A stretch of 64,000 nucleotides of DNA from Chloroflexota bacterium. GTDB taxonomy: Bacteria > Chloroflexota > Dehalococcoidia > DSTF01 > RBG-16-68-14. Position 1 is the first letter of the stretch. Every line of letters starts with the position of its first letter. The translations under genes and the position numbers were made by a program. Below the pieces are notes generated by a model. That model was not told where the DNA came from. It was given only the letters and a program-made list of their open reading frames with translations, and did not search any database. The DNA is taken from contig JAJCYW010000010.1 in assembly GCA_029262675.1 (NCBI GenBank), positions 129,166 to 193,165 of the forward strand, read 5' to 3'. Positions 43,990 through 63,995 of this stretch are shown here, piece by piece.

Positions 43990-44688
43990 CTACGGCGCGG
44001 CGTGGGCGCCGACGTTGCCGTCCGCGTCGTCGTACAGGCGCTCCGCCCGGACGACGACCCGATCGTCGTACTGGCCGACGCTGGGGTCAAACGACCCGCC
44101 GCAGGTGATTAGCGTGATGATCTCGTTTGGTGTTCTGCCGACGATCTCCTGGATCGGCGCGTCGCTCGCCTTGTACTGGTCTCTGCGGAAAACGCCGTAC
44201 TCGTACACCGTTCCGTCCTGTAGCCGGACCTCTATGACGTCTCCCGGCTCCAGGTCCTTCAGGTTCCAGAATACGGCCGCGCCGTAGTTGTAGTAGTCCA
44301 CGTGGCCTGAAAACACGGCGTTGCTGCCGAACCCGGGCCGGGAGCTGAAGTCGTACCAGGCGACGTTGAGCGGGCCATCCGGCGTCTCCATGACGCCGTT
44401 GTCATCGACGCTCAGCACGACGATCGGCGCGTCGACGCCGAAGCGCGGAATCGCCAGTCCGGCTATCTGCGCCTCGCTCGGCGGCGGGGCCTCCGCCGTC
44501 GGAGTCGGCTGCGGCGTCAGTATGCGGTCAAGGCTCGTGTCAAAAGTGGTTGCCGTTTCCGGGCCAGCGTAGCCTTCATCTCCGGTCAGTTGGAAGACGA
44601 AGAGAACGGCCGCCGCTATCAACGACAGCACGCCCGCACCCATGACGATCAGGGAGAGCCGGTTCCAGTTTGCGCTATCTATCTTCAT
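43990..44688 (-). CDS. Sortase-family transpeptidase (class undetermined)
   Basis: N-terminal TM anchor; catalytic His (FSGHVDYY), TLITCGG Cys motif, downstream conserved Arg (VVVRAERL). Confidence 0.75.
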   Translation of the reverse strand: MKIDSANWNRLSLIVMGAGVLSLIAAAVLFVFQLTGDEGYAGPETATTFDTSLDRILTPQPTPTAEAPPPSEAQIAGLAIPRFGVDAPIVVLSVDDNGVMETPDGPLNVAWYDFSSRPGFGSNAVFSGHVDYYNYGAAVFWNLKDLEPGDVIEVRLQDGTVYEYGVFRRDQYKASDAPIQEIVGRTPNEIITLITCGGSFDPSVGQYDDRVVVRAERLYDDADGNVGAHAAP

Positions 44689-46079: not shown

Positions 46080-48941
46080 CTAGTTCAGCCCCAGCCAGCT
46101 CCAGAACACGCCTCCACTGGAGGCGCCTCCTCCGGAGCTCGATCCGGCCGGGAAGCCAGAGATCAGCCCGGAAGCCTTCTGCAGAATCAACAGCGAGTCG
46201 AACGGGTCGATATTGCCGTCGTCGTTGACGTCAGCCGCGGCCGGGAACGGCACGGTTGACAGGCCGATCACCTCGAACAGGACCCAGAGCGAGTCGATCG
46301 GGTTGATGACGCCGTCGCCGTTCACGTCGCCCAGCTCGGGCGTCCCGGGCAGCGGGCTTGTCGAGACGCCGAAGTTCCACGAGCTGGCCGTCGAGGTCAG
46401 CACCGTGATCTGGATGTCGCCCGCGGCGGGGCCGATCAGCAGGTTCCGCTTGGAGATGCAGGGGTCAGGCTGGGCCTTGGTCGCCGGGCCGTTGCAGTTC
46501 GGCACCAGCACGCCGCCCTTGAACACCGGCAGCGTCTGCGCCGTCGTTCCCTGCGGGATGATGGACGAATCGAGCGTGAAGACGATGATGAGCGGCAGTT
46601 GCGACGTGCCGGACGGCGCGCTGATGTTCACCTGCTGTCCGAACAGCGTGAAGCCGCTGGGGGCGGGCTGGATGATGACCTTCTCAAGGATAGTCACCAC
46701 ACCGCCGACGGGCAGCGTAACGCTCGTTTCGAGCGGGTCTTCGGGGATCGCGCCGTCGCCCTCCTTGTCGGTCGTCACCAGGCCGCCGGGCGGCACTTCC
46801 TCCGACTGCGAATCCGGCAGCGCCGGCGTGTTGGTCGGCGTCGACGTTGGCGTTTCGGTCGGCGTTGGCGTGTCCGTCGGCACGGGCGTGTTCGTGGCCG
46901 TCGGCGTGAAGGTGTTGGTCACCGTCGGGCAGACATCGGGGCAGGGCGTGTGCGTCGGCGTCGGCGACTCCAGCGGCGTGGCCGTCGGCGTCGGCGTCAC
47001 CGTCGGCGCCGGCGCGTCGATGCAGTTGATGCGCAGCAAGTCCACGTACGGGAGTGTCGCGGTGTTATCGCCGAGGATGCCGTCACCGTCGCCGTCATAG
47101 ACGTGTTCGCCCAGCGGGTCCATGACAATCAACTCGATTTCGGGCAGGACGTCCCCAGCGTTGACCGTGTCGTAGAACGCGGAACCCGTGAGCCGCTGGG
47201 TGAAGATTGGGGTGCCATCGATGGGGTTCTTCGCGTACCCCGTCAGGAGCACGGGGACTTGCTGCACGGCCGTGCAGTGGACCTGCATCCGGACGAGCGT
47301 GCCGACCCGGTTCGACGCCGGGAACGGCGGTTCGTCGTCGGTCTTGGCCACGTGCCGCCGTTCCAACGGCTGGGCGGGGGATACGGTTGTCATGTTTGTA
47401 AACGCCTCGCAGACGAAGCCCGCCACGGCATCTGGCCGCCAGACGATCTCGTCAAAGCAGGAGCGCTCCTGGTGCTTGAGTCCGTTGAAGAAGACCTCGG
47501 TTTGGAACCCGCCGTAGCCGTCCGGGATCGAGTTCGCCTCGATCAGGATCTCGAACTTGCCGGACTCCGGGTCCTCCTCGGTGAACGGCGCCGTACACTT
47601 CTGAGGCTTTTCCGCCGTATCGCACGTGATGATGCCCGGGCCGTATGCGGTGAGCGAAAGCTCCGGCGGCGGCACCTCGCAGTTGATCGTGAGCACGTCG
47701 GCGTGCGGGCTGTTGACGGCGGCCACCTCGATCGTGCCGTCGTCCTCGTCGAAGAAGGCCGCGCCGTGCAGGTTCGCGATCGATAGCCTCTTCAGCGTTA
47801 CGGTCTGCGCGCCCGCCTGCGTGCAGTGCAGGTCGAGCTCGACGATGGTGCCCCTGTGCGTGCTGTTGGGGAACGTCGGCGCGGCGGCGCTGCGCGCCGT
47901 GTGGCGGATGAACTGGCCGAAGTTTTGGCCTGTGCACTCGTCGACGCTGGAGAGTTGCGGCCAGACGACCTCATCGTCGCAGTCCGGGCGCTGATTCCAG
48001 GCCAGGCCGCTGCTGAGCTGGACCTCTGTCTGGAAGCCGCCGTAGCCGTCCGGCGTCGGGATCGTGTTGACGTTGACCGCGACCGTGAACTCCCCCTGCT
48101 TGGTCTGGCCGGGGTAGTAGTCCGCTGTGCACGTCGCCGGCTTGGGCAGCGGCGTCGGCGTTGGCGTGCCGGCGCCGGTGTCTTCGACGCAGTCGAGTTC
48201 CGGCGCGTCCAGCGACATGATCGGGTTGGGCTGCGGCGTCGGCGTCGGCGTGTCGGTTGGCGTGTTCGTCGCCGTTGCCGTATTGGTAACTGTGGGCGTG
48301 TTCGAGGCCGTTGGCGTGGCGGTGGGGGTGTTGGTCGGTTCTGGCATCGGTGTGTGGGTGGGCAAGGTTCCGCCCGCCCCGCAGTTGACGATTATAAAAC
48401 TGCCAGGAACGGCGATATTGCCCAGGGCTGCGTCCGCGTATGCGGCGCCGCTGGTACCGGCGGGCGGGTCATTGAACGACACCAAAGTGATCTTATGTGA
48501 GCTGTCGCCCGACGTGCAGTTGAATTCGAAGGTGAACAGGTCGCCCTTGTAGAAGCTCGGGGGCGGGCTGATAAGTCCGGATAGGCAGCCACGGCCAGTG
48601 GTCGTGGCCGTGGACTGAGAAACGTCTGCGGCGTTGCATTCAGGCCACACAGTGGTGGACTGCTTGAACGTCAGGCCGGTAGCGCCGAAATCCAGGAACG
48701 CTTGCGTGCCGACGTAACCGTTCGTTGTCGGAACGGCGTCGCCGGTCACGGTGACCGTGAAGGCGCCGTTGAGGGCGACATTGTTAGAGGCGACGCTCAT
48801 GCTCATCGCCGCGCCGTCCACGGTGGACTGCGCAGTGTTGACCTGCTGGGCTACGATGAGAAGGACCGCCGCGACGGCTGCCATCAAGAGGAGTCCCGCA
48901 ACCGCCATCCGTCCGGATTCCTGCTGCATTTGAGTTAGCAT
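46080..48941 (-). CDS. Secreted modular protein A: signal/TM + 3 copies of the recurring N-domain family + PT-rich linkers + C-terminal dockerin
   Basis: ATG 48941 with GAGAAGGAAGG RBS. Copy 1 (GAAMSMSV...GYVGTQAFLDFG...VWPEC...GCLSGLISPP...AGTSGAAYAD) is nearly identical to the N-domain of the gene G protein; two diverged copies (DGYGGFQTEV...VVWPQL / ...VWRPD). Linkers PTNTPTATPTASNTPT, TPTPTATPLESPTPTHTP. Dockerin GDVNGDGVINPIDSLWVLFEV...DVNDDGNIDPFDSLLILQ. Confidence 0.7.
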   Translation of the reverse strand: MLTQMQQESGRMAVAGLLLMAAVAAVLLIVAQQVNTAQSTVDGAAMSMSVASNNVALNGAFTVTVTGDAVPTTNGYVGTQAFLDFGATGLTFKQSTTVWPECNAADVSQSTATTTGRGCLSGLISPPPSFYKGDLFTFEFNCTSGDSSHKITLVSFNDPPAGTSGAAYADAALGNIAVPGSFIIVNCGAGGTLPTHTPMPEPTNTPTATPTASNTPTVTNTATATNTPTDTPTPTPQPNPIMSLDAPELDCVEDTGAGTPTPTPLPKPATCTADYYPGQTKQGEFTVAVNVNTIPTPDGYGGFQTEVQLSSGLAWNQRPDCDDEVVWPQLSSVDECTGQNFGQFIRHTARSAAAPTFPNSTHRGTIVELDLHCTQAGAQTVTLKRLSIANLHGAAFFDEDDGTIEVAAVNSPHADVLTINCEVPPPELSLTAYGPGIITCDTAEKPQKCTAPFTEEDPESGKFEILIEANSIPDGYGGFQTEVFFNGLKHQERSCFDEIVWRPDAVAGFVCEAFTNMTTVSPAQPLERRHVAKTDDEPPFPASNRVGTLVRMQVHCTAVQQVPVLLTGYAKNPIDGTPIFTQRLTGSAFYDTVNAGDVLPEIELIVMDPLGEHVYDGDGDGILGDNTATLPYVDLLRINCIDAPAPTVTPTPTATPLESPTPTHTPCPDVCPTVTNTFTPTATNTPVPTDTPTPTETPTSTPTNTPALPDSQSEEVPPGGLVTTDKEGDGAIPEDPLETSVTLPVGGVVTILEKVIIQPAPSGFTLFGQQVNISAPSGTSQLPLIIVFTLDSSIIPQGTTAQTLPVFKGGVLVPNCNGPATKAQPDPCISKRNLLIGPAAGDIQITVLTSTASSWNFGVSTSPLPGTPELGDVNGDGVINPIDSLWVLFEVIGLSTVPFPAAADVNDDGNIDPFDSLLILQKASGLISGFPAGSSSGGGASSGGVFWSWLGLN

Positions 48942-49361
48942 CTGCGGACCTTCCTTCTCTGCCCCACCCCAACTGTTGCCCGCATCGGCAGGGGAGCCGT
49001 GTCCGGCAGTTCCCTACATACGAGACGGCGGCCGGGCGCGTCAGCCACCCCCACCCGGTCTCTGCGGCGAACGCGTTGGCCCGGCGATTCCCTCGCCGGC
49101 CGGCCCGACAGTCTTACTATAGTCCTACTATCGGCATGCTGCATCGCGGGCCAATTACTCAGCCGATTCGTACCCGCAGCTTCCGGTTAGTTTACCATAC
49201 GGATTATCGTATCCCTAGGGTGTTAAATCCCTTAGGCGTGGTCCTCAAAACCCTTAGAATCTAGAGGAATCCCCCTAGTTCCGTAGCTTGCGGGAACCGC
49301 TAGGCCTGCGCGGCAGCCTCCCCGGCGGGATCCGGGCGCGGGGCGGGCTCCCTACGCCATC

Positions 49362-50366
49362 TCAGCGGCAGATGAAGAGGTTCGCCTCTATTTGAAGGAT
49401 CAGCAGCGCGTCGATCGGCCCGGTGCGGCCATCGCCGTTCAGGTCGTCGCTGAACGGAACGAAGTCGATGACGCCCGTCGTCAGCCAGAGCACCCAGAGG
49501 GCGTCCTGGCTGTTGACCAGGCCGTTGCCGTCGATATCGCCGCAGGGCCGCGGCCGAGGCGTAGCGGTTGCGGGATCGAGCGTCGGCGTCGCGGTCACGG
49601 CCGGCGTCGGCGTTGGCGTCGTAGTCGGGGTCGGCGTTGCCGTGGGCGTAGGGGTGGGCGTCAGCGTGGGGCCGCCGGGCGTAATCGTCGGCAGCGGGGT
49701 GGGCGTCGGCGGCTCGCCGCAGATGATCGTGATGTTCGTCAGCTTGGGGATAGTGTCAACTTGAGAGTCGTTGACAAAGATCGTAATCTGTGATCCGCTG
49801 GTTCCCTGAGACGTGTTCGGAGGAATGACGCCATCATACGGCAACTGCACGACATCGCTGATGGTGTCCGTGCTGGAGCAGGTCATGCTGATGTGCACGA
49901 AGTCCCCGGCGAATGTGCTGATCGGCTGCGGCGGAAGTAATCCTGAGAGGCAGCCGTGGCCCACGTTGTAGATTGGCTGACCTGGCCCCGCCAGGTTGTC
50001 GAACTCCGGCCGCTGGGCGGTTTGCCCTACACAGTCCGGCCACACGATCTCATCGGCAGCTAGGCCGGTTCTGTTGTACGTCAGGTGTTCGCCGTAGCGG
50101 ACGAACGACTGCACGGCTACATACCCGCTGCTCGGGGCAGTGACGATCTTCACGGCCAGCGTGAACGTCTCGTCGAGCTCTAGCTGGCAGGTGCCCTCGC
50201 AGTCGCCGTCGGCCGCGATCACCGTGAGCGCCATCTCCGGGCCGCCGGACGTGGCGGACGTGGACGGCAGTTGGCCGCTGAGGAAGAGCGCGGCGGCGGC
50301 CAGCGCCACCACGGCAACGCCCGCGGCGGCGATGCGTCCGGCCCGTGGCCGCGATCGCGTGCTCAT
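49362..50366 (-). CDS. Secreted protein B: signal + N-domain + PT linker + dockerin
   Basis: SGGPEMALTV...GYVAVQSFVRYG...IVWPDC...HGCLSGLLPPQP...; TPTPTPTATPTPTTTPTPTP; dockerin CGDIDGNGLVNSQDALWVLW...DLNGDGRTGPIDALLILQ. Confidence 0.7.
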   Translation of the reverse strand: MSTRSRPRAGRIAAAGVAVVALAAAALFLSGQLPSTSATSGGPEMALTVIAADGDCEGTCQLELDETFTLAVKIVTAPSSGYVAVQSFVRYGEHLTYNRTGLAADEIVWPDCVGQTAQRPEFDNLAGPGQPIYNVGHGCLSGLLPPQPISTFAGDFVHISMTCSSTDTISDVVQLPYDGVIPPNTSQGTSGSQITIFVNDSQVDTIPKLTNITIICGEPPTPTPLPTITPGGPTLTPTPTPTATPTPTTTPTPTPAVTATPTLDPATATPRPRPCGDIDGNGLVNSQDALWVLWLTTGVIDFVPFSDDLNGDGRTGPIDALLILQIEANLFICR

Positions 50367-50565
50367 CTGGTGGCGGCTCCTGAATCGGCTGCTAGTCGAG
50401 TCATCCGAATTGCAGTATATCGCGTGCGTGCCGGTTGAGTCGTCATCCGCCGCTGACAGGAGAAGGGCTCGCTAGCGGCGGATGCAGTAAGGGCGTCCCG
50501 ACCATGTCGGGACGCCCCCCTGTTTAGTGCTCGTTGTTGCGTCTACGTACCTTCCTGAGCGCCCG

Positions 50566-51534
50566 TTACGCGGGTGGCACGCAGAAATCGCTGCCGTTGC
50601 CGGCCACGATCTGGAGGATCAACGCGGCGTCGATCGAGTTGACGACTCGGTCGCCGTCGATATCTCCGATCAGATCGAGAAGGCTGTCCTGGTTGTTGTC
50701 CTTGAGCGGTAGCAACGCCTCGACGAGCCCGGCGTCGAACCACAGCACCCAGAGCGCGTCCAGCGTGCTGATTTCACCATCGCGGTTGACGTCGCCGCAG
50801 ACAAAGTCCGGAACCGGCGTCGCTGTCGGCGGTACCGGCGTGTCCGTCGCCGGAGCCGGCGTGTCTGTCGGGCCAGGCGTGGCTGTCGGGCCGGATGTCG
50901 TCGGCGTGGCCTCGACAGGCGCCGTCGTTGGCGTTTCTGGCGGCGCGCCCGCACCGCAGGTGATGGAGAGGGTGCTCACCTTGGCGGGTATGACTTCGGC
51001 TCCGGCGGAGAAACCGGTGCCGCTGGTACCGGCGACAGGGTCGCCTGCCGGCAGCAGCGCTACGTCCGTCGTACTGGGGCCCGCGGAGCACGTGATTGAT
51101 ACCTCTGCGAAGCTGCCGGTGGCGGTGCTGAGCGGCAGCGGCGGAATCAGGCCAGTGAGGCAGCCGTGGTTGACGGTGGTCGGCCCGCCCGGCTGGTCGT
51201 GCAAGGCCACCGCGTCGGTGCAGTCCGGCCAGAGGATTTCGTCAGCAGCGGCCACCGCTGCGAGGTCGTAGGACAGGTCGCTGCCGAAGTCGATGAACGA
51301 CTGGGCGCCGACGTAGCCGCCTGCCAGCCCCTCGATGATCTCGACCGTGAGCGTAAACTTCGCGCTGTTATCGAACGTGCAGTCTGCGGCGCAGCCTTCG
51401 GCCGTCAGCCGCATCTCCGGGCCGCTACTGGCGGCCGAGGTGGTCTGAATCTGGTCGGCGAGGAAGAATGCCGTCGCCACGAGGGCGAGCACAGCCGCCA
51501 GCCCGAAGCCCAGATATGTTCTCTTTAGTTGCAT
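50566..51534 (-). CDS. Secreted protein C: signal + N-domain + PT linker + dockerin
   Basis: ATG 51534 (MQLKRTYLGF...) with AAGGAGG 7 nt upstream. SSGPEMRLTA...GYVGAQSFIDFG...ILWPDC...HGCLTGLIPPLP; dockerin CGDVNRDGEISTLDALWVLW...DIDGDRVVNSIDAALILQ. Confidence 0.7.
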   Translation of the reverse strand: MQLKRTYLGFGLAAVLALVATAFFLADQIQTTSAASSGPEMRLTAEGCAADCTFDNSAKFTLTVEIIEGLAGGYVGAQSFIDFGSDLSYDLAAVAAADEILWPDCTDAVALHDQPGGPTTVNHGCLTGLIPPLPLSTATGSFAEVSITCSAGPSTTDVALLPAGDPVAGTSGTGFSAGAEVIPAKVSTLSITCGAGAPPETPTTAPVEATPTTSGPTATPGPTDTPAPATDTPVPPTATPVPDFVCGDVNRDGEISTLDALWVLWFDAGLVEALLPLKDNNQDSLLDLIGDIDGDRVVNSIDAALILQIVAGNGSDFCVPPA

Positions 51535-51570
51535 CGTGTAACCTCCTTGCATATCTCGCTTCGAGACGCG

Positions 51571-52362
51571 CTACTGTACGCGGCGGCCTGCGATTACGCG
51601 CAGGCCGAACGTGGAGAGCCCCGTCGCGCTGATCGCCAGCAGAGCTGCGATTACTGCCCACATGCCTGTTCCGAACCCGCTGTCGCCGGTGGCGCTGAAT
51701 GTACCCGTGTCCGGCAGACCAGTCGGACCAGTCGGCCCGGGCGGTGGCGCCTCGCCACAGTTGACGATTACGGAGTCCGTCTTGGTCGGCACGTCTACTT
51801 GTGTATCGCCCTCATAGAAGGCGAACGCGGCGCCGCTGGTCCGGCCGGCGGATAGCGGCATCAGGCGCACGGCCGTGTGCGAGTAGGTGTCTGAGCACTC
51901 CAGGTCGATTTCAAGCAGCGTGCCCGTGTAGCTGCTCTCAGGGAGCGGCGGGAGCAGGCCCGTGAGGCCGCCATGGGTGATCTCGCCTGCCCCTACATCG
52001 CCTCTGATGATTACATCTTCGGATACTGCGTCGGGCCACAGGAACTCATCCGCCGGTTCCGGCCGCGCGACGTAAGTCAGGTCCAGGCCGTAGTCGATGA
52101 ACGTTTGTACCAGAACGTAGCCCTCGATCGGCGCCGTGACGACGTCGACCGTGACCGTTATCTCGCCGCCCAGATCCACGTCACACTCGCCGCCGCTGCA
52201 ATCGACGCCGGGGCCGGATACGCTGATGGCCATCTCCGGACCGATGCCGGCAGCGCTCGCGGTGGGTGCGGCGGTCTGGCCCCATGCCAGCACCAGCATC
52301 GCCATGAGCGGGATACCCAACAGCGCGGTGCTGCGTAGCCCTAATCGTTTCCGCACTTCCAT
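51571..52362 (-). CDS. Surface protein D: signal + N-domain + C-terminal LPDTG sortase sorting signal, no dockerin
   Basis: ATG 52362 (MEVRKRLGL...) with GGAAGGGAG RBS. GIGPEMAISV...GYVLVQTFIDYG...FLWPDA...HGGLTGLLPPLP. C-terminus GLPDTGTFSATGDSGFGTGMWAVIAALLAISATGLSTFGLRVIAGRRVQ. Confidence 0.7.
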   Translation of the reverse strand: MEVRKRLGLRSTALLGIPLMAMLVLAWGQTAAPTASAAGIGPEMAISVSGPGVDCSGGECDVDLGGEITVTVDVVTAPIEGYVLVQTFIDYGLDLTYVARPEPADEFLWPDAVSEDVIIRGDVGAGEITHGGLTGLLPPLPESSYTGTLLEIDLECSDTYSHTAVRLMPLSAGRTSGAAFAFYEGDTQVDVPTKTDSVIVNCGEAPPPGPTGPTGLPDTGTFSATGDSGFGTGMWAVIAALLAISATGLSTFGLRVIAGRRVQ

Positions 52363-52705
52363 GTTAGCTCCCTTCCTTCTACTCTTCCCTAAGTCTCGCG
52401 GCGTCCCTGGCCGGCGCACCCCTAAGCGGGGCCGCTTCGGCTGCGATCCGAAAGGTCGTGTGGCCCCCGCCACATCTTCCCCATAAGCACTGCCCCATGC
52501 CCAAACGTACCGGCGGAAGGGGCAGTAGCTGCGCCTAGCCTAGCGTATCCGGGGAGTTAATACTAGCCCCTCCGCGCAAGCCGGCCAGACGCTTCCACGT
52601 GGCTTCGGCATTATCATACTCGATTCGCGCAACTGCGCAAGGTGCGATTCTGGCTTACATGTCCGTGCTCTCATCTGTCGCACCAATGCGTCTCATTGAT
52701 GACGG

Positions 52706-52740
52706 CCGGAGAGCCGCCCTCGATTGGCGGCTCTCCCCGG
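52706..52740. terminator. Hairpin CCGGAGAGCCGCC-ctcgatt-GGCGGCTCTCCCCGG 3' of gene E
   Basis: Read directly, 24 nt downstream of the E stop on the minus strand. No clear U-run. Confidence 0.35.
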
Positions 52741-52763
52741 CGTTTCAGATAGATCTCCGGGTG

Positions 52764-53549
52764 TTAATTCACGCACGGCACCTGATACTGCGTGATGGCG
52801 CCCAGGATGTCAAGGAGAAGGTCGATTGCGCCGTCGTCGTTGATGTCGAAGGCCGGATCGTACGGCGGGGCTCCACTAGGAGCGTAGTGCTGAATGATGC
52901 CCAGGATGTCGTTCAGCAGGTCGACGATGCCGTCTCCGTTTGTATCGGCGCAGCCCATGAACAGGAGGGTTGATGACAGGACGCTTACTCCAGGGATCTG
53001 CCCGATGTCATCGGGGTCCGCCGGCGTGTTGATCAGGTACGAACCAGTCAGGTCCAGCGCGGTTCCCGGACCCATGATCGAGCCCGGATCGAGCGTCAGC
53101 TTCGCCAGGAGGCCGGTGCCTTGCACGCCGAAGGGAGGCACGTGGTCGATGGTAACGCAGTCCACGAAGACGTGGTTGGCCTCTATCGTCGGTGAAGGAC
53201 AGGATGGGCTTCGGCCGGATCCGGCAAGCCACGTGGTGTACGGCACCCAGGTTACGGCCGTCGCCAGCGAATCGTCGAATGCGATGTCGACGCGGAAGCC
53301 GGAGGCGCCTCCGGGCTCCTTCACGCTGACGGCCCAGACATAGATGTCTCGGTCAATGCCATCCGGGGAGACGACGATAGAGGACGCGCGGACGGGACTT
53401 ACGTCGGAGTAGCTCAACAAGATCTGCGTGGTCCCCGCACTTTCCGCGGGGTTGCTATCTTGAGCGATCCCCACTGTGGCGAAGACGAGCGCTCCAACCA
53501 GCAATCCGATCTTCGCGAATCCTCGCAATGGCTTTGTCAGTCGGTTCAC
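52764..53549 (-). CDS. Secreted adaptor-like protein E: signal + cohesin-like module + dockerin
   Basis: GTG 53549 (VNRLTKPLRGFAKIGLLVGALVFATV...) with AGGAGG 7 nt upstream. Cohesin-like hallmarks GASGFRVDIAFDDSLATAVTW and GTGLLAKLTLDPG. Dockerin CADTNGDGIVDLLNDILGII...DINDDGAIDLLLDILGAI. Confidence 0.6.
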   Translation of the reverse strand: MNRLTKPLRGFAKIGLLVGALVFATVGIAQDSNPAESAGTTQILLSYSDVSPVRASSIVVSPDGIDRDIYVWAVSVKEPGGASGFRVDIAFDDSLATAVTWVPYTTWLAGSGRSPSCPSPTIEANHVFVDCVTIDHVPPFGVQGTGLLAKLTLDPGSIMGPGTALDLTGSYLINTPADPDDIGQIPGVSVLSSTLLFMGCADTNGDGIVDLLNDILGIIQHYAPSGAPPYDPAFDINDDGAIDLLLDILGAITQYQVPCVN

Positions 53550-53607
53550 GGCTTGTACCTCCTGCTTCCGAATGCGTTGCATACGGGAACTGGCTCCCCC
53601 CGAAGCT

Positions 53608-54549
53608 CTATGATTCTCCCCTGTGCATGATGCGCCGCCGCAAGAAGCCTGCCGCCAGTCCCGCTGCCGTGAGGCCGCCAAGGCCAACGAGGATCCAGAG
53701 TGTGACAGCGCCGTTTGCGTTCCCGTCGTCATCGGGGGCGCTGATGCTCGGTGTAGGTGTGCCGATTTCAGAAACGGCCGTGTCTGTCGCTGTCGGCGTG
53801 CCATCCGCCGCGGGAGTCGTCGGCGCCGGCGAGGCGCCCGCAGTCGGCGACTGCACGGTTGCCGGTTCGATTGTTGTCGTGGCGTTCGTTCCTGGCGTGT
53901 CTGTTGCGACCTGCGGCGAAGACGTAGCCGTGGGCGGTGCGTTTCCGGTCACGCGGACCAGGCCGCCGACGACGTCCAGTGGTACCGGGTCTCCCAGCGG
54001 ACCCGAGAGTTGAGACGTCAGCAACAGCGGGCTGGAGCCCGCGCCCAGCGGCGTGAACGTCACGCTGGCAAGCGTGAGTTCGCCCTGCAGCCCCGGGATC
54101 GAATCGCTGGAAGACAGGCAGCCGAAGCGGACGCTGCCCGGCTCTACGCGCGGTGGCAGGCATTGGAACGGGCGGCTACTGGCTGCCAGCCCCGGGCCGG
54201 GCTCGAGGTGGTCCACAGCGACGACGGTCTCATCGAATTCGATGATGAACTCGAACGCGGCCATGCCGATCGATTCAACTTCGCGGTCCGGAACGGTATC
54301 GCGGTTGTCGTCGTAGAAGATCGCCCCGTGGTGGTCCAGGTCCTCCAGGACGATGAAGACGCCAAACGCACCGCTGTCCGCGTCGACGCTGGAGATGGCC
54401 GGCAGCAGCCGGACCGTTCCGTCTGCGGACTGCGCGCTGGTGGACTTAACTGCGATCGTCATAGCAATCAGCATAAGCGATGCCAGAAGCATCCAGATCA
54501 AGAGCGTGCGAGGCCGCGCGCGAGGCATCAGCGGGGCGGTCCGACCCAA
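53608..54549 (-). CDS. Membrane-anchored cohesin-like protein F: signal + cohesin-like module + PT linker + C-terminal TM anchor
   Basis: TTG 54549 with GGGAGGAAAC RBS. Cohesin hallmarks GMAAFEFIIEFDETVVAV and GLQGELTLASVTFTPLGAGSSPL. C-terminus TLWILVGLGGLTAAGLAAGFLRRRIMHRGES; no LPXTG. Confidence 0.6.
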   Translation of the reverse strand: MGRTAPLMPRARPRTLLIWMLLASLMLIAMTIAVKSTSAQSADGTVRLLPAISSVDADSGAFGVFIVLEDLDHHGAIFYDDNRDTVPDREVESIGMAAFEFIIEFDETVVAVDHLEPGPGLAASSRPFQCLPPRVEPGSVRFGCLSSSDSIPGLQGELTLASVTFTPLGAGSSPLLLTSQLSGPLGDPVPLDVVGGLVRVTGNAPPTATSSPQVATDTPGTNATTTIEPATVQSPTAGASPAPTTPAADGTPTATDTAVSEIGTPTPSISAPDDDGNANGAVTLWILVGLGGLTAAGLAAGFLRRRIMHRGES

Positions 54550-54734
54550 ACGTTTCCTCCCATCTACGAAAACGATGCGGACGTGGCGAATGTAACGCCC
54601 GTGCTCCTCTTTCTAGCATGTTCCGGCCCCTGTGCAATGCCATTTCCCGCAGTCATTGCTGCGGATCTTCAGCCCTACCCCCAATTCGGCGTAGGACTCA
54701 AGGCCCAAAGCATCTGTAATCTGCGAATAGATAA

Positions 54735-54777
54735 GGGCGGGGAAGCCGGAACTATGAGTCCGGTGCTCCCCCGCCCC
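54735..54777. terminator. GC-rich hairpin GGGCGGGGAAGCCGGA...TCCGGTGCTCCCCCGCCCC 3' of gene G
   Basis: Read directly, ~90 nt downstream of the G stop on the minus strand; followed on that strand by TTATCTATT. Confidence 0.4.
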
Positions 54778-54868
54778 ATCTTGGTCACTCCGTGACCTGC
54801 TGTATTCGCTTCTTTCCCCGCAACCGCTCTAGCTGGCTACGGAAAGAACTTGATGATCTAAAACCCCC

Positions 54869-56329
54869 TTAGGCCTTCGGGTTCACCGGCGGCTGCGGCG
54901 GGTGCGGCACTGCGCATGTGCTTCCGAAGCGGCCAAAGACGAACTGCAGGTCGTTGATGTCGATGTCGGCATCTGACTGCGTTCCGGAGGGCTCCAGGTT
55001 CATGAAGTCCTTGTAGATCAGGCTACCCTTCTCAACGCCCCAACGGAACGAGATCGCCTGCGCGTCTAGCGCGTCGACCGAACAGTCGGGCTCCACGTCA
55101 CCTTCGAGGTAGCGGAACGTAATGTCCGCGTCGTCGCAGGCGAAGATCGGGATCGCCTCACCTTGCTCGTCACCCAGGTCACAGTTCACGTTGTTGATCT
55201 GGACGACGTTACCGTTTTCCTGGTTGGGCTTCATCGGAGAGTAGATCTCCGGCTGCGGATAGACATCGACGGTGGCCAGCGAGGCCAGGTTGTCGATGCG
55301 GTCTACTTCAGCCGCCTTACCCACGGTGACACAACCAATGCGGGCAACGCCCTCAAGCTGCGGCTTGCTAGCCGAGTCTTGGATGATGCAGATCGCACCC
55401 GCGGCCTGCCAGTCGGCGCCCGTGGTCAGGTCAACACAGACCTTCTTGTTGTCGTAGAGAACCTCGAACTCAAAGGCCGCGAGTACCTGGAATCCGGTCA
55501 CGCCCTTCGGGTCCGGGGAGACAACCGCCTGGCTCAGCTCTTCGCTGAGGCTACCGATGTTCGTGCCAGAGAGGCAGTCTACCGGCGGAACCTTTGAACC
55601 CTGTCGCGTCAGGAAGACGTTCTGCAGGGCCGGGATCTTGGACATTCGCGGCACCGGCGGCGGCGTGTTCGTCGGCGTCGATGTCGGAGTCGGCGTGAAT
55701 GTCGGAGTCGGCGTTGCTGTGTTCGCGTTCGTGCAGTGTACGGTTACCGAACTGCCAGGAACGGCGATGTTGCCAGTTACAGCGTCAGCAAATGCCGCGC
55801 CGCTGGTACCGGCGTTCGGGCCGCCGAGCGTCTCCAGATCAATCTGGTGGCCCTGGGACTTGCCCGTTGTGCAGGTAAAGTCGAACTGGAACAGCGCACC
55901 CTTGATAACGCTGATTGGCGGACTGATCAGTCCGGTCAGACAACCACGGCCAACGGTTGTGGCCGTCAGTGTTCCAAGGTCTGCCGCGGCGCAGTCTCCC
56001 CATATGGTGGAGGAGCCCGTTGCCGTCAGACCAGTGGCGCCAAAGAACAGGAAGGCCTGCGCACCGACGTAACCGTTCGTAATCGGAACGGCGTCACCGC
56101 TGACGGTGACGCTAAAGGCGCTACCAATTGGGACACAAACGTCGCCCGGGGCCTTTGCGCCGGGGCAGGTCTGGCCGCCGGAGACGGCCATGCTCATGGC
56201 AGCGCCGTCTGTGGCTGCCTCTGCAGTGTCGGTGCTGTGGCCCATGCTGAACACCATGACCGCTAGCGCGATCGCCAGAAGCGGCAGGCTCAGCAAGCCC
56301 AGTACCTTAATTCGTTGTGTTCTATTCAC
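54869..56329 (-). CDS. Secreted protein G: signal + N-domain + PT linker + cohesin-like module + divergent (class-2) dockerin-like module
   Basis: GTG 56329 (MNRTQRIKVLGLL...) with AGGAGG 8 nt upstream. N-domain TDGAAMSMAVSGG...GYVGAQAFLFFG...GCLTGLISPP. Cohesin-like GVTGFQVLAAFEFEVLYDNKKVCV...ARIGCVTVG. C-terminal DVEPDCSVDALDAQAISFRWGV...DADIDINDLQFVFGRFGSTC. Confidence 0.65.
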   Translation of the reverse strand: MNRTQRIKVLGLLSLPLLAIALAVMVFSMGHSTDTAEAATDGAAMSMAVSGGQTCPGAKAPGDVCVPIGSAFSVTVSGDAVPITNGYVGAQAFLFFGATGLTATGSSTIWGDCAAADLGTLTATTVGRGCLTGLISPPISVIKGALFQFDFTCTTGKSQGHQIDLETLGGPNAGTSGAAFADAVTGNIAVPGSSVTVHCTNANTATPTPTFTPTPTSTPTNTPPPVPRMSKIPALQNVFLTRQGSKVPPVDCLSGTNIGSLSEELSQAVVSPDPKGVTGFQVLAAFEFEVLYDNKKVCVDLTTGADWQAAGAICIIQDSASKPQLEGVARIGCVTVGKAAEVDRIDNLASLATVDVYPQPEIYSPMKPNQENGNVVQINNVNCDLGDEQGEAIPIFACDDADITFRYLEGDVEPDCSVDALDAQAISFRWGVEKGSLIYKDFMNLEPSGTQSDADIDINDLQFVFGRFGSTCAVPHPPQPPVNPKA

Positions 56330-56701
56330 GAAGTTGACCTCCTACCGAGAGTAGATAATATCTAGGTTACTCTGTGGTTTGCTTGTTCTGGTGTAGTACA
56401 TCCCCTCCTTTCTCGGCCCTACACGGGGTAGGAGCCAAATACAGCGGTGTAACCAAATTGGCAACCAACCGGGCGGGGGTCGGTGATTGGCATGTAATAC
56501 CGCTTGCGCGGCGGACTATGGCGGGGAACCTGTGGAATCTTCTTCCACCAGCTGATACTTGTATATCACGGTGTCCCAGCTTTGTCAAGCGTTCCGAGCG
56601 TACCTAATTTCGATCCTCTGCAGAACCGGTTGGAGCGACACCTGACGTATGGAGCGGTGCATTCCCGGCATCATGACAACGACAACGCGCGAGACTCGCG
56701 A

Positions 56702-58900
56702 TCATAACAACAGCGAGCAGTCCTGCCCGTGGTGCTGAATGACCGGCAGGACGTCGAAGAGCAGGCTGACCGTGCCGTCACCGTCGATATCGTAGAGCAC
56801 GTCGAATCCGGGATCTCCCGTTACCTCGCCGTGGTGTTGCACGACCGTCAGGATGTCGAAGAGCAGGTCGACCACGAGGTCGCCGGTAACGTCGAAGCAG
56901 GCCTTCAGGTCTGTTGTTTCGGAGGCGTCGTTGCCTACTGGGTTCTCATCCGGGTCCGAGGCAGACGCCGTGACGTTGTTCGTAATCGTTTGGTCCACCA
57001 TCAGTGTTGGCGCGCGCACATCCAGCGTGATGATCACCTGGCTGCTTACGAGGACCTCGTCGATGGTGCACTCGACCGTATCGACCGGTACCGCGACGCA
57101 AACGGCTCCCGTCGCGCCGACAAAGGTGGCCGGACGGTTGAACTTGGCGAAGTTGAAGACGGTAGCCGTCGGCAACGTGTCCGTCACGACCACGTCCAGC
57201 GCGTCGCCGAGCCCGATGTTGTCGACCGTGATCGTGTAGCTGTAGTAGCCGAGTCGCAGCACCGGATCGGCCAAATCCACCTTGGTTACGACGAGGTCCG
57301 GCGGCGGCGCCACAACCGGCGTGTACGCGATAGCCGAGTTGTTGCCGGAGTGGACAAAGAGCTCGTTGTCGGCCGAAACGACCGCAGTGTTCTTCATCAT
57401 CAGGCTCTGCGTCACCACCGGAGAGAGCATCACGATCTCGACGAATGCATCGCTGCCCGCCGGAATGTTCCCCAGGCTGCAGGTGACGACCCCGGCGACT
57501 GGCGCGCCGCAGCCGGGGCTTGCCGACACGAAGGCACCGTCCAACGGAAGCGTGTCCACAATGACGACGTTTTCTGCCTCTTGCGGACCGCTGTTTGCGG
57601 CCGTCAGCGTGTACGTGACGTTCTCGTTGCCGTTCACGAATGACGGATCGCCCACTTTGGTCAGATCCACGTCTGACCGTGGTGCGAGGACTACCGTCTC
57701 TTCGATATCCGTATTATTACCGGTGTTCGCAAAAGGCTCGTTGCTCGCGCTTACAGTGACCGTGTTCGAGACCAGCGTGTCCAATATGGGCGATGGCGCC
57801 GTCACGGTGATATCGATGACTACCTGGTCGGACGGGTTCATCGGGTTGGTGACCGTGCAGATCACGACGCCTAGATTCTCGCCGCAGTTGGCGCCCGCGG
57901 AGACCGCGGACACAAACGACGAACCGGGCGGTAACGCGTCGGACATCGTAACGTCCTCGGCCGTTTGCAGGCCCACGCTATCGATGGTGACGCGGTACGT
58001 GAAAGTGGCCGTCGCGTCGACGGGGTCCGTCAGGTCGACCTTCGTCACCTTGACGTCAGGCCGCTCGCTCGGCGGCGGCAGCGGCGTCGGGGTGTCGGTC
58101 GGCGTCGGCGAGACCGTCGGCGTGTGTGTAGCCGGAATCGGCGTCACCGTCGGTGTCGGCGTCGGGCCCAGGCAGTGGACGACGAGATCTGAAAGCTTCG
58201 GAATGACTGTTGTTGTCCCATCCTGGAACGCGGTGCCGCTGGTGCCCGCCAACGGGTCGTTTTCCGGCAGGAGCTGGACATTGGTGGTGGAAGAAGACGA
58301 GGAGCACGTGAATGATAGCTCCAAGATGGTGCCGATGAAGAAGCTCACCGGCTGCGGGGGGATTAGGCCCGTGAGTCCGCCGTGGGATACGACGTGCGGC
58401 GCGACTTGGGCCTTGAATACCACCGAAGGGTCTAGGTCTGGCCAGACCATCTCGTCGGCCGCGGCCTGGGAGTTGTAGGTGAGGTTGGTCGTGACGCAAT
58501 CGGTGTCGAAGCGGTCGGCGCCATCGCCGCCGCCGTTGTCGATTGTGTCACTGCAGGTATTGAGACCGGCGCCGTCTTCGCTCGCGGCGGGATCGTAGAT
58601 GCCGTAATCGATGAACGTCTGCACCGCAATGTACCCCGGCACTGGCGTATCGATGACATTAGCCGTCAGCGTGAAGGTGTCGCCTGCCGTGACGCAGTCG
58701 TCGTTCGGGTCATAGCCGCCCGGGCATGCTGTGCCGCCCGTAGTAACCGCCATAGAGATCTCCGGTCCGGTGCTGGCGGCCTCTGCGCGCTGCTCGCCGC
58801 CGCTATCCCAGACCAGGAAGACCGCGACGGCGATGAGCGCGATGATTGGCAGCACCAAGAGCCGTGTTGCCATCCTTGGACTAATGTTGCCGATCTTCAT
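56702..58900 (-). CDS. Secreted protein H: signal + N-domain + 3 DUF11-like conserved repeat domains + dockerin
   Basis: ATG 58900 with GGAGGAGG RBS. N-domain STGPEISMAV...GYIAVQTFIDYG...MVWPDL...HGGLTGLIPPQP. Three ~120-aa repeats (DVKVTKVDLTDPVDATATFTYRVTI.., DVDLTKVGDPSF..VTYTLTAANSGPQEAENVVIVDTLP.., DLVVTKVDLADPV..YSYTITVDNIGLGDALDVVVTDTLP). Dockerin CFDVTGDLVVDLLFDILTVV...DIDGDGTVSLLFDVLPVI. Confidence 0.7.
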   Translation of the reverse strand: MKIGNISPRMATRLLVLPIIALIAVAVFLVWDSGGEQRAEAASTGPEISMAVTTGGTACPGGYDPNDDCVTAGDTFTLTANVIDTPVPGYIAVQTFIDYGIYDPAASEDGAGLNTCSDTIDNGGGDGADRFDTDCVTTNLTYNSQAAADEMVWPDLDPSVVFKAQVAPHVVSHGGLTGLIPPQPVSFFIGTILELSFTCSSSSSTTNVQLLPENDPLAGTSGTAFQDGTTTVIPKLSDLVVHCLGPTPTPTVTPIPATHTPTVSPTPTDTPTPLPPPSERPDVKVTKVDLTDPVDATATFTYRVTIDSVGLQTAEDVTMSDALPPGSSFVSAVSAGANCGENLGVVICTVTNPMNPSDQVVIDITVTAPSPILDTLVSNTVTVSASNEPFANTGNNTDIEETVVLAPRSDVDLTKVGDPSFVNGNENVTYTLTAANSGPQEAENVVIVDTLPLDGAFVSASPGCGAPVAGVVTCSLGNIPAGSDAFVEIVMLSPVVTQSLMMKNTAVVSADNELFVHSGNNSAIAYTPVVAPPPDLVVTKVDLADPVLRLGYYSYTITVDNIGLGDALDVVVTDTLPTATVFNFAKFNRPATFVGATGAVCVAVPVDTVECTIDEVLVSSQVIITLDVRAPTLMVDQTITNNVTASASDPDENPVGNDASETTDLKACFDVTGDLVVDLLFDILTVVQHHGEVTGDPGFDVLYDIDGDGTVSLLFDVLPVIQHHGQDCSLLL

Positions 58901-60860: not shown

Positions 60861-63800
60861 CTATCGCGGGCCATCTGTGTCCTCTTGACGACGCGACGGC
60901 GCAGGCCTGAAGCGCGGCTGGAACGGTGCCGGCGTCACGCCCTGCCGTCTGCGCCACCACAGCAGTTGCGACCAGGCGAGCAGCACCGCGCCGCCCGCTA
61001 ATCCAGCGATCGCGAGCGTGGTTGGCAGTACGTCGCCCGATGACCCGTCAGCCCCTCCCGTATCGGGGAGACCTGCGACCGGAGTCTTTAGGATAGGCCC
61101 ACTGTCGCGGACCAGTGTTGGTGTTGAGGTTGGCACAGGCGCCTGGATGGGCGTGGCCGATCCCGTGGGTGATGCGGGCGTTGCGGTGCTGGGCGGCGCC
61201 CCGGGGGCCGGCGTGTCCGTCGGCGGGATGAATGCGGGCGTTGCGGTGCTGGGCGGCGCACCGGGGGCCGGCGTGTCCGTCGGCGGGATGGCGGGAACTG
61301 GTGTGGCGGTGTTTGCGGGTGCCGGCGTCGATGTGGGCGGCACAGCGGGCGTCCCGAATGTCGGTAGCGGGATCACCGTCGCCGTTGGTGGTGGCGGAGT
61401 CGTCGGTGTGGGCGTTGGAATCGCCGCTATCGCCGGTGTCCACGTCGGCTCGGCGGTCCACGTCGGTACTGGTGTCCAAGTCGGCTCCTGCGTCCACGTT
61501 GGCTGGGGCGTCCAGGTGTGCGTCGCTGTCGGCGAGGCGTCAGACGTTGGCACAGGCGTACCAGAGCCGTCAGGCGTCGCGGAGGGTTCTGGAGTCGTAC
61601 TCGGTGCCGGCGTGTCTGTAGCTGTAAGAGCCGGCGTGGCTGTCGCCGTCGATGTTACCGTTGGGTCCGGCGTCGGCGAGCCGGCCCCGGCGCCTCCCGG
61701 CGTGGCAGTTGCCGTCGCTGTCGCTGCGGCCGTCGCTGTCGCTGGCGCAGTCGTTACCGTCGCGGTTGGTTGCGGCGAAGGTGATGCGGTCGGAGTGCTT
61801 GACGGCGTTTCGCCGGTCGGCCCAGGGGTCGCGGTAGCCTCGGGCGTGACGCTCGGCGTTGGGGTTTCCGTTGACTTGGATGGCGGATCCTGTATGCCCC
61901 ACGGTTGCGCACAGGTGCTGCCCGTGCGGCCGTAGACTGTCTGCAGGTCGCTGATGTCGATGTCGCCGTCCGGCCGGATGGCTGGCTCGAGATCGTACCT
62001 CTCCTGATATAGGGTAGAGCCTTCGGAAACGCCGAAGCGTCCGGCTACCATTTGGTGATCGATGACGTTGACGGCGCAGTCGACGTTGATGTCGGACTCC
62101 AGCGCGCGAACGATGACCTTGGCGTCGCCGACGAACGAAACCGGAATGCCGTCCTCCAGCGCGCCGACGAGTCTGGTGTTCGCCGTGACGTCATCCAGAA
62201 TCACTTCTATCCCGTTATTTGGCGCCGGCCGAATCGGAATCCTCGCCAGCGGTGTTACCGTGATCCTGGCGAAAGCGAACGTGCCGCTCGGGCCGGGGTC
62301 GACGCCGGTCGTCACGCAGCCGAAGCGCACCGCTCCCTCCGTCCTGTTCTCCAGACATGTCGCCGTTCGGTCTGTGCCTTCCAACTCCTGGAGGAACGGC
62401 GAGGCGTCGATATCGAGCGATACGGTGTTGTTGTCGTAGGCCACGTGCAGCTCAAAACCACCGAGGCCGGATCCCTCCGGAACGTTCTGCGCCCGTTCGT
62501 ACAGCACAAGCGAGCCATTGCCCAAGAATAGGTTGGATTCCGCCGGCTCCTTGATCACACTGACGATATCCTGTTCCGATTGAACGCCCGCCGGCCCCGT
62601 GACGCCTGGATACGCGACTGACTTGTGGGCCGTAATCGCCACCGTCCGCAGCGTCGTGGTGAGCGAGCTGCTGTTGAGGCTCGGTATGCCTGGCGTTGCT
62701 GTTGGAGTCACCGTCGGTGTCGGGGTGGGCGTAGCGACAGGTGTCGGAGTCGCCGGCGGGATGACGATGACGACGCCGTCCTGCGTCACGATAGGTAGCT
62801 GGGCCGCGCCTGGGACGTCGACGATAATCGGGCCTGAGAGATGGAGCGGTGACAGTCCTTCGGCGAGGGCGAAGAATGTGGCCGTGGCGATCACGCCTGA
62901 ACCGTTGGCGCCAGGCGGCGTGGTGCCGATGGTGTTGCAGGAGAACTCGACGTCGCTAACGCCTACGATGGGCGGCAAGCAGACGACGTTGCGTCCCGTA
63001 CTGCCGAGAAAGGGGCCGACGACGAGCGACTGGGACAAGATCACAGACGGGCTGTAGCTGAGCATGAACTGGAACGCGCCGAGGTCGGCTACGTTATCGA
63101 CAACAATGTCCGCCGTGACGATGGTACCGACTGGCGCGTTCTGGCTGACCGGATCTATGCGTATGGTGACTGGCCCAGCGGGCGTCGTTGACGTTGGCGT
63201 AGGTGTGAACGTCGCTGTCGGCGGCGGGATCGGCGTGTCGGTGGGGGTTGGGGTGATCGTCGGCGTTGGTGTCACCGTCGGCGTCGGGCAGATGCCGCCC
63301 GGGCACGGGGTTGGTGTCACCGTCGGCGTCGGGCTGAGCGTGGCAGTTGGCGAGAGCGTCGGCGTCGGCGTCGCCCCCTCGACGACCGTGATCTCGCCGA
63401 CTCCGAGTGCCGCCGTCGGGTAGGCGAGTCCAGGGACGTCTGTGAAAATGACGTCCTCAAACGTCAGCAAGCTGATGCCGGCAGCCTCTCCCCGCAGCGT
63501 GATGAATGCTAACACGCCGGTGCCTGTTGGCCCCGCCGGTGTTGGTTCAATCGACACGCAGGTGTACTGGATGAAACCCGGCCCGGCGGTGGGCACTAGG
63601 CACGTGACGATGCGTGATGTGCTGGAGAGGAACGGCCCGGGTGATACGCTGGGCGCGGAAACGACGAGCGGATCATACCGAAGCGTGAACTGGAAGGCGC
63701 CCAGCTCCGGCGCGTTTGCCACAGCGACCTCAAGGATCGTTTCGCTGCTCAGATTCACAGTCTGGCTCTGCGGCTGCGGGCAGAGGATGAAGACGACCGC

Positions 63801-63995
63801 CGCGCCGCACGTGATCGGCGTTGGTGTAGCCGTGGGCGTTGACGTTGGCCCGCCAGGCGTCGGCGTTGAGGTCGGTGTCAATGTCGGGCATGTAGTCGTG
63901 CCCAAGACGGTCGCGGTGCCATTGTGCAGCGAGCGCGGGATCGGCGTGCCGAGCGTATCGGCGATGTCTGCGTTTGCCAGGATCAGCGTGCTCAC
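60861..63995 (-). CDS. Scaffoldin-like surface protein J (N-terminus beyond window end): >=3 cohesin-like modules + class-2 dockerin-like module + long PT-rich region + LPDTG sortase signal
   Basis: Three cohesin hallmarks (LGAFQFTLRYDPLVVSA..GVLAFITLRGEAAGISLLTF; LGAFQFMLSYSPSVILS..GVIATATFFALAEGLSPLHL; LGGFELHVAYDNNTVSL..GTFAFARITVTP) separated by PTPT linkers. DINVDCAVNVIDHQMVAGRFGV...DGDIDISDLQTVYGRTGSTC. C-terminus GLPDTGGADGSSGDVLPTTLAIAGLAGGAVLLAWSQLLWWRRRQG. ORF still open at 63995. Confidence 0.65.
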   Translation of the reverse strand: MSTLILANADIADTLGTPIPRSLHNGTATVLGTTTCPTLTPTSTPTPGGPTSTPTATPTPITCGAAVVFILCPQPQSQTVNLSSETILEVAVANAPELGAFQFTLRYDPLVVSAPSVSPGPFLSSTSRIVTCLVPTAGPGFIQYTCVSIEPTPAGPTGTGVLAFITLRGEAAGISLLTFEDVIFTDVPGLAYPTAALGVGEITVVEGATPTPTLSPTATLSPTPTVTPTPCPGGICPTPTVTPTPTITPTPTDTPIPPPTATFTPTPTSTTPAGPVTIRIDPVSQNAPVGTIVTADIVVDNVADLGAFQFMLSYSPSVILSQSLVVGPFLGSTGRNVVCLPPIVGVSDVEFSCNTIGTTPPGANGSGVIATATFFALAEGLSPLHLSGPIIVDVPGAAQLPIVTQDGVVIVIPPATPTPVATPTPTPTVTPTATPGIPSLNSSSLTTTLRTVAITAHKSVAYPGVTGPAGVQSEQDIVSVIKEPAESNLFLGNGSLVLYERAQNVPEGSGLGGFELHVAYDNNTVSLDIDASPFLQELEGTDRTATCLENRTEGAVRFGCVTTGVDPGPSGTFAFARITVTPLARIPIRPAPNNGIEVILDDVTANTRLVGALEDGIPVSFVGDAKVIVRALESDINVDCAVNVIDHQMVAGRFGVSEGSTLYQERYDLEPAIRPDGDIDISDLQTVYGRTGSTCAQPWGIQDPPSKSTETPTPSVTPEATATPGPTGETPSSTPTASPSPQPTATVTTAPATATAAATATATATPGGAGAGSPTPDPTVTSTATATPALTATDTPAPSTTPEPSATPDGSGTPVPTSDASPTATHTWTPQPTWTQEPTWTPVPTWTAEPTWTPAIAAIPTPTPTTPPPPTATVIPLPTFGTPAVPPTSTPAPANTATPVPAIPPTDTPAPGAPPSTATPAFIPPTDTPAPGAPPSTATPASPTGSATPIQAPVPTSTPTLVRDSGPILKTPVAGLPDTGGADGSSGDVLPTTLAIAGLAGGAVLLAWSQLLWWRRRQGVTPAPFQPRFRPAPSRRQEDTDGPR

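Follow-up and report, generated by a model that had tools for sequence, protein, structure and literature searches.

A family of predicted cohesin-fold modules in conserved surface-protein loci of Chloroflexota

Introduction

No bacterial system for assembling protein complexes outside the cell is understood better than the cohesin-dockerin pair, which has also found wide use in synthetic biology. The cellulosomal cohesins of Clostridia (PF00963; types I, II and III) include A. cellulolyticus ScaB Coh6 (5nrk), R. flavefaciens ScaC (5lxv) and ScaE (2zf9), and those of C. thermocellum CipA, OlpA and OlpC. Non-cellulosomal cohesins, from Clostridium perfringens GH33 and GH84C (2vo8, 2w1n) and from Archaeoglobus fulgidus (2xdh), are also recognisable by sequence and have demonstrated dockerin partners. 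To our knowledge, the roles of cohesin-dockerin pairs outside cellulolytic Firmicutes are mostly unknown. Chloroflexota, whose surface biology is little known, abound in the ocean, the subsurface and sponges. Here we describe a module that occurs eight times in six genes (three times in A, once each in B, C, D, G and H) of a Chloroflexota bacterium. The genes lie in a 64,000-nucleotide stretch of contig JAJCYW010000010.1 (positions 129,166 to 193,165), hereafter the window. Judging from structure models, the module very probably adopts the cohesin fold, a nine-stranded beta-sandwich of about 160 residues.

The proteins of this locus resemble cellulosomal components in their layout. Protein A combines tandem modules with a dockerin, as cellulosomal scaffoldins do. 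B and C each have one module and a dockerin, like the adaptor ScaC, and D has one module with an LPXTG signal, like ScaE. As is found for cellulosomal cohesins, the modules are encoded beside dockerin proteins and a sortase. In other respects they differ. The new modules are 7-14% identical to cellulosomal cohesins and the window copies have no PF00963 match. Moreover, the family has up to three putative disulfides and the distinctive loops DE(I/V)VWPDC, HGCLTG and PPxPxS. Unlike cellulosomal systems, the window locus is without carbohydrate-active enzymes or carbohydrate-binding modules (CBMs), its host is a member of the Chloroflexota rather than the Clostridia, and dockerin binding is putative. 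The new family also differs from the non-cellulosomal cohesins in not being recognisable by sequence. Titles and abstracts of the literature on cohesins and dockerins in Chloroflexi or in sponge symbionts, and on non-cellulosomal cohesins, contained no description of this module family.

Results

The eight copies form one family with a predicted cohesin fold

To avoid circularity, a hidden Markov model (HMM) was trained solely on relatives from elsewhere, without the protein of the window itself, and was searched against the six-frame translation of the window. It recovered exactly the eight copies and nothing else, with domain E-values from 4e-62 to 1e-9 (Table 1), which is far past chance. 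An alignment of the copies spans about 160 core positions and has 11 invariant columns, and the proposal in a preliminary description of this DNA that they belong to a single homologous family is therefore upheld. BLASTP divides them into sub-groups: B, C, D and H are 30-39% identical, A1 and G 58%, and A2 and A3 33% (A1 to A3 being the successive copies in A). All six genes are present at the coordinates first assigned to them and are co-directional, with E and F between D and G, and I and J past H. N-terminal signal or anchor segments are visible in the sequences of the window proteins. The domain was originally placed at the N-terminus, after the signal peptide; this is mostly so but not always, as 143 of 216 relatives' copies begin before residue 110.

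In the locus proteins, Pfam detected dockerins in A, B, C, E, H (weakly) and I, DUF11 repeats in H, and cohesins in J (strongly) and F (weakly). On the module itself it gave no match, either in whole window proteins (E ≤ 1) or in the isolated copies C, D, G and A2 (E ≤ 10), and no NCBIfam model covered the module in the locus proteins scanned. The domain thus has no named sequence family, in line with the preliminary description. CBM families were likewise without a match at E ≤ 1 in whole proteins or E ≤ 10 in the same four copies alone, and no lectin family matched. These statements refer to Pfam and NCBIfam; Gene3D or SUPERFAMILY may already flag the proteins at superfamily level.

An AlphaFold2 model of copy C, computed from a 36-sequence alignment, is all-beta, with a pLDDT (predicted local distance difference test) of 95.6 and a pTM (predicted template modelling score) of 0.90. 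Foldseek placed cohesins on top, the best match being ScaC of Ruminococcus flavefaciens (E 4.8e-7). In an independent model of B the 19 highest matches were cohesins, and the tail matched solved dockerins. Both high-confidence models match solved cohesins over nearly their full length. Adhesin and pilin domains were the next-best structural matches, with lower scores than cohesins. The predicted structure is therefore what is expected of a cohesin, namely a nine-stranded beta-sandwich jelly roll, some 140-170 residues long and superposable on cohesins of known structure. The context is also that of a cohesin: the modules lie singly or in tandem in secreted or surface proteins, and dockerin-bearing proteins are encoded in the same genome. 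A significant profile match was not obtained for the window copies.

Originally, the module was thought to be a possible unrecognised fold, one that a confident match to a characterised family would overturn. At the level of structure such a match now exists, since two independent models agree with solved cohesins. Of the checks proposed at that time, the HMM, AlphaFold and Foldseek analyses were run; they confirmed a homologous family without a Pfam counterpart, and the predicted fold proved to be a known one.

A weak sequence link to cohesins

The module was compared by hhalign with the six canonical cohesins of the locus. With growing profiles, P fell from 0.094 to 0.03 and then to 0.007 (95 columns); the two values from the small profiles were not significant. 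The aligned segments follow the order expected from the structure: GYxxQxxIxYG falls on the cohesin strand-3 motif 'lgaFeFxvxYD' and C70 and C90 of the module align with two invariant Cys of the local cohesins. In a three-copy relative (P0030) the summed Pfam Cohesin score was 24.2 bits, against a gathering threshold of 24.1, with 13.4 bits for a single copy (E 0.09). Homology between the module and cohesins is likely, although sequence alone is no proof of it. Through a chain of alignments to 1OHZ (Clostridium thermocellum Coh2-dockerin), Q43 presumably lies at a dockerin-contacting residue of strand 3, which we take to be a lead and not a result.

The local canonical cohesins and their Chloroflexota relatives share genomes, gene clusters and often a polypeptide with the new modules. 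They also have in common a Cys pair at aligned positions and the register of the strand-3 motif. On the other hand, the likeness appears only in profile-profile comparison (P = 0.007), and the new family has two extra Cys pairs and different conserved loops.

Conserved cysteines and other positions

Conservation was examined in 219 non-redundant copies. The pair C70 and C90 is complete in 125 of them and entirely missing from 87, and only 7 have one Cys without the other. C114 and C158 are conserved in almost every copy, and C13 and C17 co-occur in 189. From this pattern, three disulfides (C13-C17, C70-C90 and C114-C158) are predicted, of which up to three would brace any one module. Two to four conserved Cys had been counted earlier; the number is up to six, arranged as three pairs. 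The module motifs are GYxxQ, DE(I/V)VWPDC, HGCLTG, PPxPxS, TSGAAF and a terminal C. Apart from Cys, conservation is strongest at M6, L8, F25, L27, V29, P35, G38, Y39, Q43, G49, L52, Y54, E64, W67, P68, T92, P97, S101, G105, L125, G137, F140, P149, L154 and I156. Lys or Asn is the major residue in no strongly conserved column.

In the module of H, an Asp-rich insert of about 40 residues with two bracketing Cys (CSDTIDNGGGDGADRFDTDC; 58487-58600) separates strands 3 and 4. Such an insert recurs in 15 of the 219 copies. It may resemble MopE-type Cys/Asp metal-binding motifs.

Distribution, architectures and conserved loci

An exhaustive profile search of 1.84 billion representatives found 845 clusters (50% identity) with E ≤ 1e-3, of which 517 reach 1e-10 and 190 reach 1e-30. 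The named relatives are one protein from a Dehalococcoidia metagenome-assembled genome (MAG) and those of Chloroflexota MAGs (11 loci). Because the search for related loci used a closer subset of the alignment and reaches close relatives only, a distribution limited to Chloroflexota is a lower bound.

Two or three tandem copies are found in 32 of 174 fetched members, and Pfam Dockerin_1 in 30 of 101. A crude motif screen of the 174 assigned a C-terminal transmembrane (TM) or LPXTG anchor to 44 of them and a lipobox to 16; the latter include lipoproteins of about 200 residues with no domain other than the module. In six relatives, and also in loci L001, L004, L005 and L009, a canonical cohesin comes after one or more family modules, which is the order seen in G. 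A few members carry peptidase S8, RCC1, FG-GAP, PD40 or HINT domains. In the 11 Chloroflexota MAG loci, family, dockerin and canonical-cohesin genes are clustered and point in the same direction. One of these, L005 (1-13762), repeats the window order I-H-G-E-D-C-B-A, including a three-copy A-like gene. The module thus occurs in scaffoldin-like architectures and clusters with dockerins and cohesins. It had been suggested that the module occupies the position of a catalytic cargo. This is probably not the case: with a module that matches solved cohesins, the proteins resemble scaffoldins, adaptors and anchors rather than analogues of enzymes.

Syntenic arrays of five to eight family, cohesin and dockerin genes were seen in L005, L001, L003 and L009. 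In L009 a protein of 1763 residues has a family module at residues 1328-1494, followed by a canonical cohesin.

The relationship of A1 to G

The first copy in A had been described as nearly identical to that of G, which was taken to suggest recent duplication or recombination within the locus. In fact, they share 58% of their protein sequence and about 70% of their DNA (read off the alignment), and their signal peptides are unrelated. A1 and G are mutual best matches, at 58% as against 40-44% to copy 1 of an A-like relative (P0038), and are 29-44% identical to their counterparts in L005 or P0038. A special relationship between the two is therefore retained, but a recent duplication is ruled out at 58% amino-acid identity. 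An old, lineage-specific exchange or conversion of the two genes is possible.

Other copies resemble their positional counterparts elsewhere. The closest outside matches of A2 are the second copies of A-like relatives (53% in P0038, 49% in L005) and that of A3 is the third copy of P0038 (53%). The D module is 50% identical to its counterpart in L005, and D, H, A2 and A3 all have their best match in the positional counterparts there. Since L005 contains a three-copy A-like gene with the best-matching counterparts of A2 and A3, the triplication in A is old.

Canonical cohesins, dockerins and neighbouring genes

The features of the locus are collected in Table 1. Its dockerins are of at least three kinds. 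Subtype 1 occurs in A, B, C and I and a 'flexitail'-like subtype 2 in E and H; the third kind is a dockerin-like tail behind the last cohesin of G and J. No dockerin was found in D by Pfam scan. Gene J probably encodes an anchoring scaffoldin; a homologue search with a single J cohesin found nothing. Across MAGs the canonical and new-type cohesins are kept together, which suggests distinct specificities and is expected of a hierarchy with several of them.

The subtype 2 dockerins (52767-52952 in E; 56705-56899 in H) have the pattern DxxGDxxVDLLxDILxxxQH with a Cys at either end. NCBIfam NF041520 (a 'flexitail' putative surface-protein domain) matches that of E at 6e-9 and that of H at 8e-4, both below cut-off. 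A subtype 2 tail also terminates the three-copy relative P0030. In the C-terminal half of G (54914-55648) and in J (about 61900-62534), a canonical cohesin is directly followed by a dockerin-like segment (EGDVxPDCxVDxxDxQ...DIDINDLQFVFGRFGSTC) which Pfam does not recognise. This combination is apparently a conserved unit, as it is also found in stand-alone proteins of about 255-261 residues from many MAGs (P0178, P0190-P0202).

Table 1. Features of the locus in window coordinates. HMM, domain E-value with the model built from relatives outside the window; aa, amino acids.
Feature	Coordinates	Strand	Size or evidence
Gene A	46080-48941	minus	953 aa
A1, cohesin-fold module (predicted), aa 40-190	48372..48824	minus	HMM 1e-25; closest to G copy, 58%
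A2, cohesin-fold module (predicted), aa 238-424	47670..48230	minus	HMM 2e-20
A3, cohesin-fold module (predicted), aa 426-644; long insertions near C-terminal end	47010..47666	minus	HMM 1e-9
A dockerin, subtype 1, aa 870-930	46152..46334	minus	Pfam Dockerin_1 E 1.4e-8; two DxNxDG loops
Gene B	49362-50366	minus	334 aa
B cohesin-fold module (predicted), aa 39-220	49707..50252	minus	HMM 4e-51
B dockerin, aa 275-334	49365..49544	minus	Pfam Dockerin_1
Gene C	50566-51552	minus	328 aa
C cohesin-fold module (predicted), aa 42-202; copy used for modelling	50947..51429	minus	HMM 4e-62
C dockerin, aa 252-319; insertion separating two repeats	50596..50799	minus	Pfam Dockerin_1 E 1.9e-7, two stretches
Gene D	51571-52473	minus	300 aa
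D cohesin-fold module (predicted), aa 76-243; without C70/C90 pair	51745..52248	minus	HMM 4e-50
D LPDTG sorting signal, hydrophobic segment and RR tail	51574..51717	minus	Direct sequence reading
Gene G	54869-56329	minus	486 aa
G cohesin-fold module (predicted), aa 39-203	55721..56215	minus	HMM 5e-23
G second module, canonical-type cohesin	55109..55648	minus	Aligns with J, F and E cohesins
Gene H	56702-58900	minus	732 aa
H cohesin-fold module (predicted), aa 43-246; with Cys-bracketed Asp-rich insert	58163..58774	minus	HMM 3e-52
H dockerin, subtype 2 ('flexitail'-like)	56705..56899	minus	Pfam Dockerin_1 weak, E 0.068; NCBIfam flexitail E 8e-4
Gene J, LPDTG-anchored, three canonical cohesins	60861..63995	minus	Pfam Cohesin E 4e-10, two stretches; three modules in alignment
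Class F-like sortase gene flanking the cluster	43990..44688	minus	NCBIfam class F sortase E 2.8e-33, below curated cut-off

Several further observations were made on the genes of the locus. In A, a module of about 155 residues without a Pfam or NCBIfam match (residues 708-862; 46356-46820) separates the PT linker from the dockerin. The open reading frame (ORF) of E (52764-53804, 346 residues) overlaps F (53608-54549) by about 200 nucleotides. The database version of E (P0175, 261 residues) begins at a GTG near 53549, with (V/M)NRLTKPL, and with this start the overlap is gone. F has a weak Pfam cohesin match (E 0.016), a C-terminal TM segment and, in its tail, a sub-threshold match to the NCBIfam GVDTG_CTERM sorting domain (E 0.042). 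Protein I has an N-terminal region of about 520 residues without a family match (residues 1-523; 59152-60720), followed by a subtype 1 dockerin, and is a candidate for a real 'cargo'; L005 has a similar gene in the same position. Directly before the cluster lie two tRNA-Ser genes (gga and cga) and the class F-like sortase gene (43550-44688). On the plus strand, at 44862-45989, an ORF of 375 residues has a lipobox-like N-terminus (VACGDS) and repeated (W/A)(S/A)PDG motifs; from their sequence, these repeats look typical of PD40/TolB-like beta-propellers. The GC content is 0.60-0.63 at 52-58 kb and 0.66-0.69 elsewhere in the window.

Discussion

Based on these results, we suggest that the modules are cohesin-type protein-docking sites on the cell surface and form a new subfamily beyond current sequence models, a reading to which we give a probability of roughly 60%. 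That dockerins are what they bind is, by a small margin, the better bet. The modules would be passive, high-affinity docking sites which capture dockerin-bearing proteins. A would serve as a three-site scaffoldin, itself plugged in via its own dockerin, B and C as one-site adaptors comparable to R. flavefaciens ScaC, and D as a single-site base that is anchored by sortase, in the manner of ScaE. G would contribute one new-type and one canonical cohesin, and H one site together with DUF11 repeats. Together with the J, F and E cohesins, the three dockerin subtypes and the sortase, the modules may build a multi-tier extracellular assembly.

Which dockerin is bound, and what the assembly serves, we only infer. 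Tentatively, the module may represent a fourth type of cohesin, which is braced by disulfides and recognises dockerins of its own, for example the 'flexitail'-like ones in E and H. In Chloroflexota that are uncultured and probably aerobic or marine, it might then combine with canonical cohesins in a conserved, enzyme-free, multi-tier surface architecture. Such a cohesin-dockerin 'construction kit' would serve the envelope, a sheath, or attachment to other cells or a host, and not the degradation of polysaccharides.

Several points weigh against the modules being cohesin-type docking sites. The hhalign value of P = 0.007 is the sole sequence-level support and came at the third attempt. With Pfam Cohesin no window copy scores, copies C, D, G and A2 having been tried alone to E ≤ 10, and profile searches of the PDB by sequence (8 and 101 sequences) matched the dockerin part only and no cohesin. 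Moreover, the six canonical cohesins of the locus (three in J, and one each in F, E and the second module of G) could absorb all of the dockerins, and for B and C as adaptors a cargo of their own is not obvious. Finally, the single-chain model of full-length B has a pTM of 0.61; this value is expected of two independent domains and is therefore silent on docking.

The strongest alternative, which we consider possible but distinctly less probable, is that the module is itself displayed cargo: a cohesin- or Ig-like beta-sandwich on an adhesin display platform, binding polysaccharide, mineral, a host or prey surface or another cell. If so, it might be presented directly, as in D and the lipoprotein- or TM-anchored relatives, or through dockerins on the J, F and E cohesins. 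The module stands at the cargo position of dockerin proteins, B and C display nothing else, and six canonical cohesins are available for the dockerins. A different binding site could be formed by the strongly conserved polar and aromatic residues Y39, Q43, Y54, E64, W67, D69, H88, T92 and S101 together with the family-specific loops DE(I/V)VWPDC and PPxPxS, none of which canonical cohesins have. Adhesin and pilin domains rank next structurally, and some relatives carry peptidase S8, FG-GAP, RCC1 or PD40 instead of dockerins. Nevertheless, all of the top structural matches are cohesins, with near-complete coverage, and the weak sequence link points to cohesins specifically. A tandem array with a dockerin, and a single module with a sortase, TM or lipid anchor, are classic layouts of scaffoldins and anchors. 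Of the binding-module and adhesin options raised in the preliminary description, a CBM is not borne out, as no CBM or lectin family matched, while a displayed ligand-binding module stays the main rival of docking.

A structural role of the pilin or stalk type, in which the neighbouring sortase would covalently polymerise or stabilise a CnaB- or Ig-like module to build a fibre, is very improbable. Domains of this kind in sortase-assembled pilins and adhesins (BcpA 3kpt, CppA 5xcb and SpaP 3opu) have structural scores below those of cohesins. The new modules lack their isopeptide triad: no Lys, Asn or Asp/Glu triad is conserved, and the lack of a strongly conserved Lys or Asn column in the 219 copies is evidence against isopeptide-type pilin domains. 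Stabilisation is apparently by disulfides instead. The sortase is class F-like and not of the pilus-specific class C, and a sorting signal is found in D only, the other five proteins having dockerin tails and not pilin motifs. An isopeptide-stabilised pilin or CnaB identity was accordingly rejected.

A chance or low-complexity similarity, or a genuinely new fold, can be dismissed: nothing favours either except the missing Pfam and NCBIfam matches, whereas the outside HMM recovers eight of eight copies, 845 cluster representatives match at E ≤ 1e-3 (190 at E ≤ 1e-30), and two high-confidence models match the cohesin fold.

The fold and its logic are known, and what is new is a large, Chloroflexota-centred and putatively disulfide-braced cohesin-like subfamily in a conserved, enzyme-free locus. 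Because the models tested fail to recognise at least 845 clusters, cohesin censuses based on Pfam or NCBIfam would miss the family in Chloroflexota. If dockerins are not bound, the cohesin fold would have been recruited to another ligand. If they are, the family would supply a new, orthogonal and disulfide-stabilised cohesin-dockerin pair, and a conserved surface-assembly locus of the Chloroflexota would become accessible to experiment.

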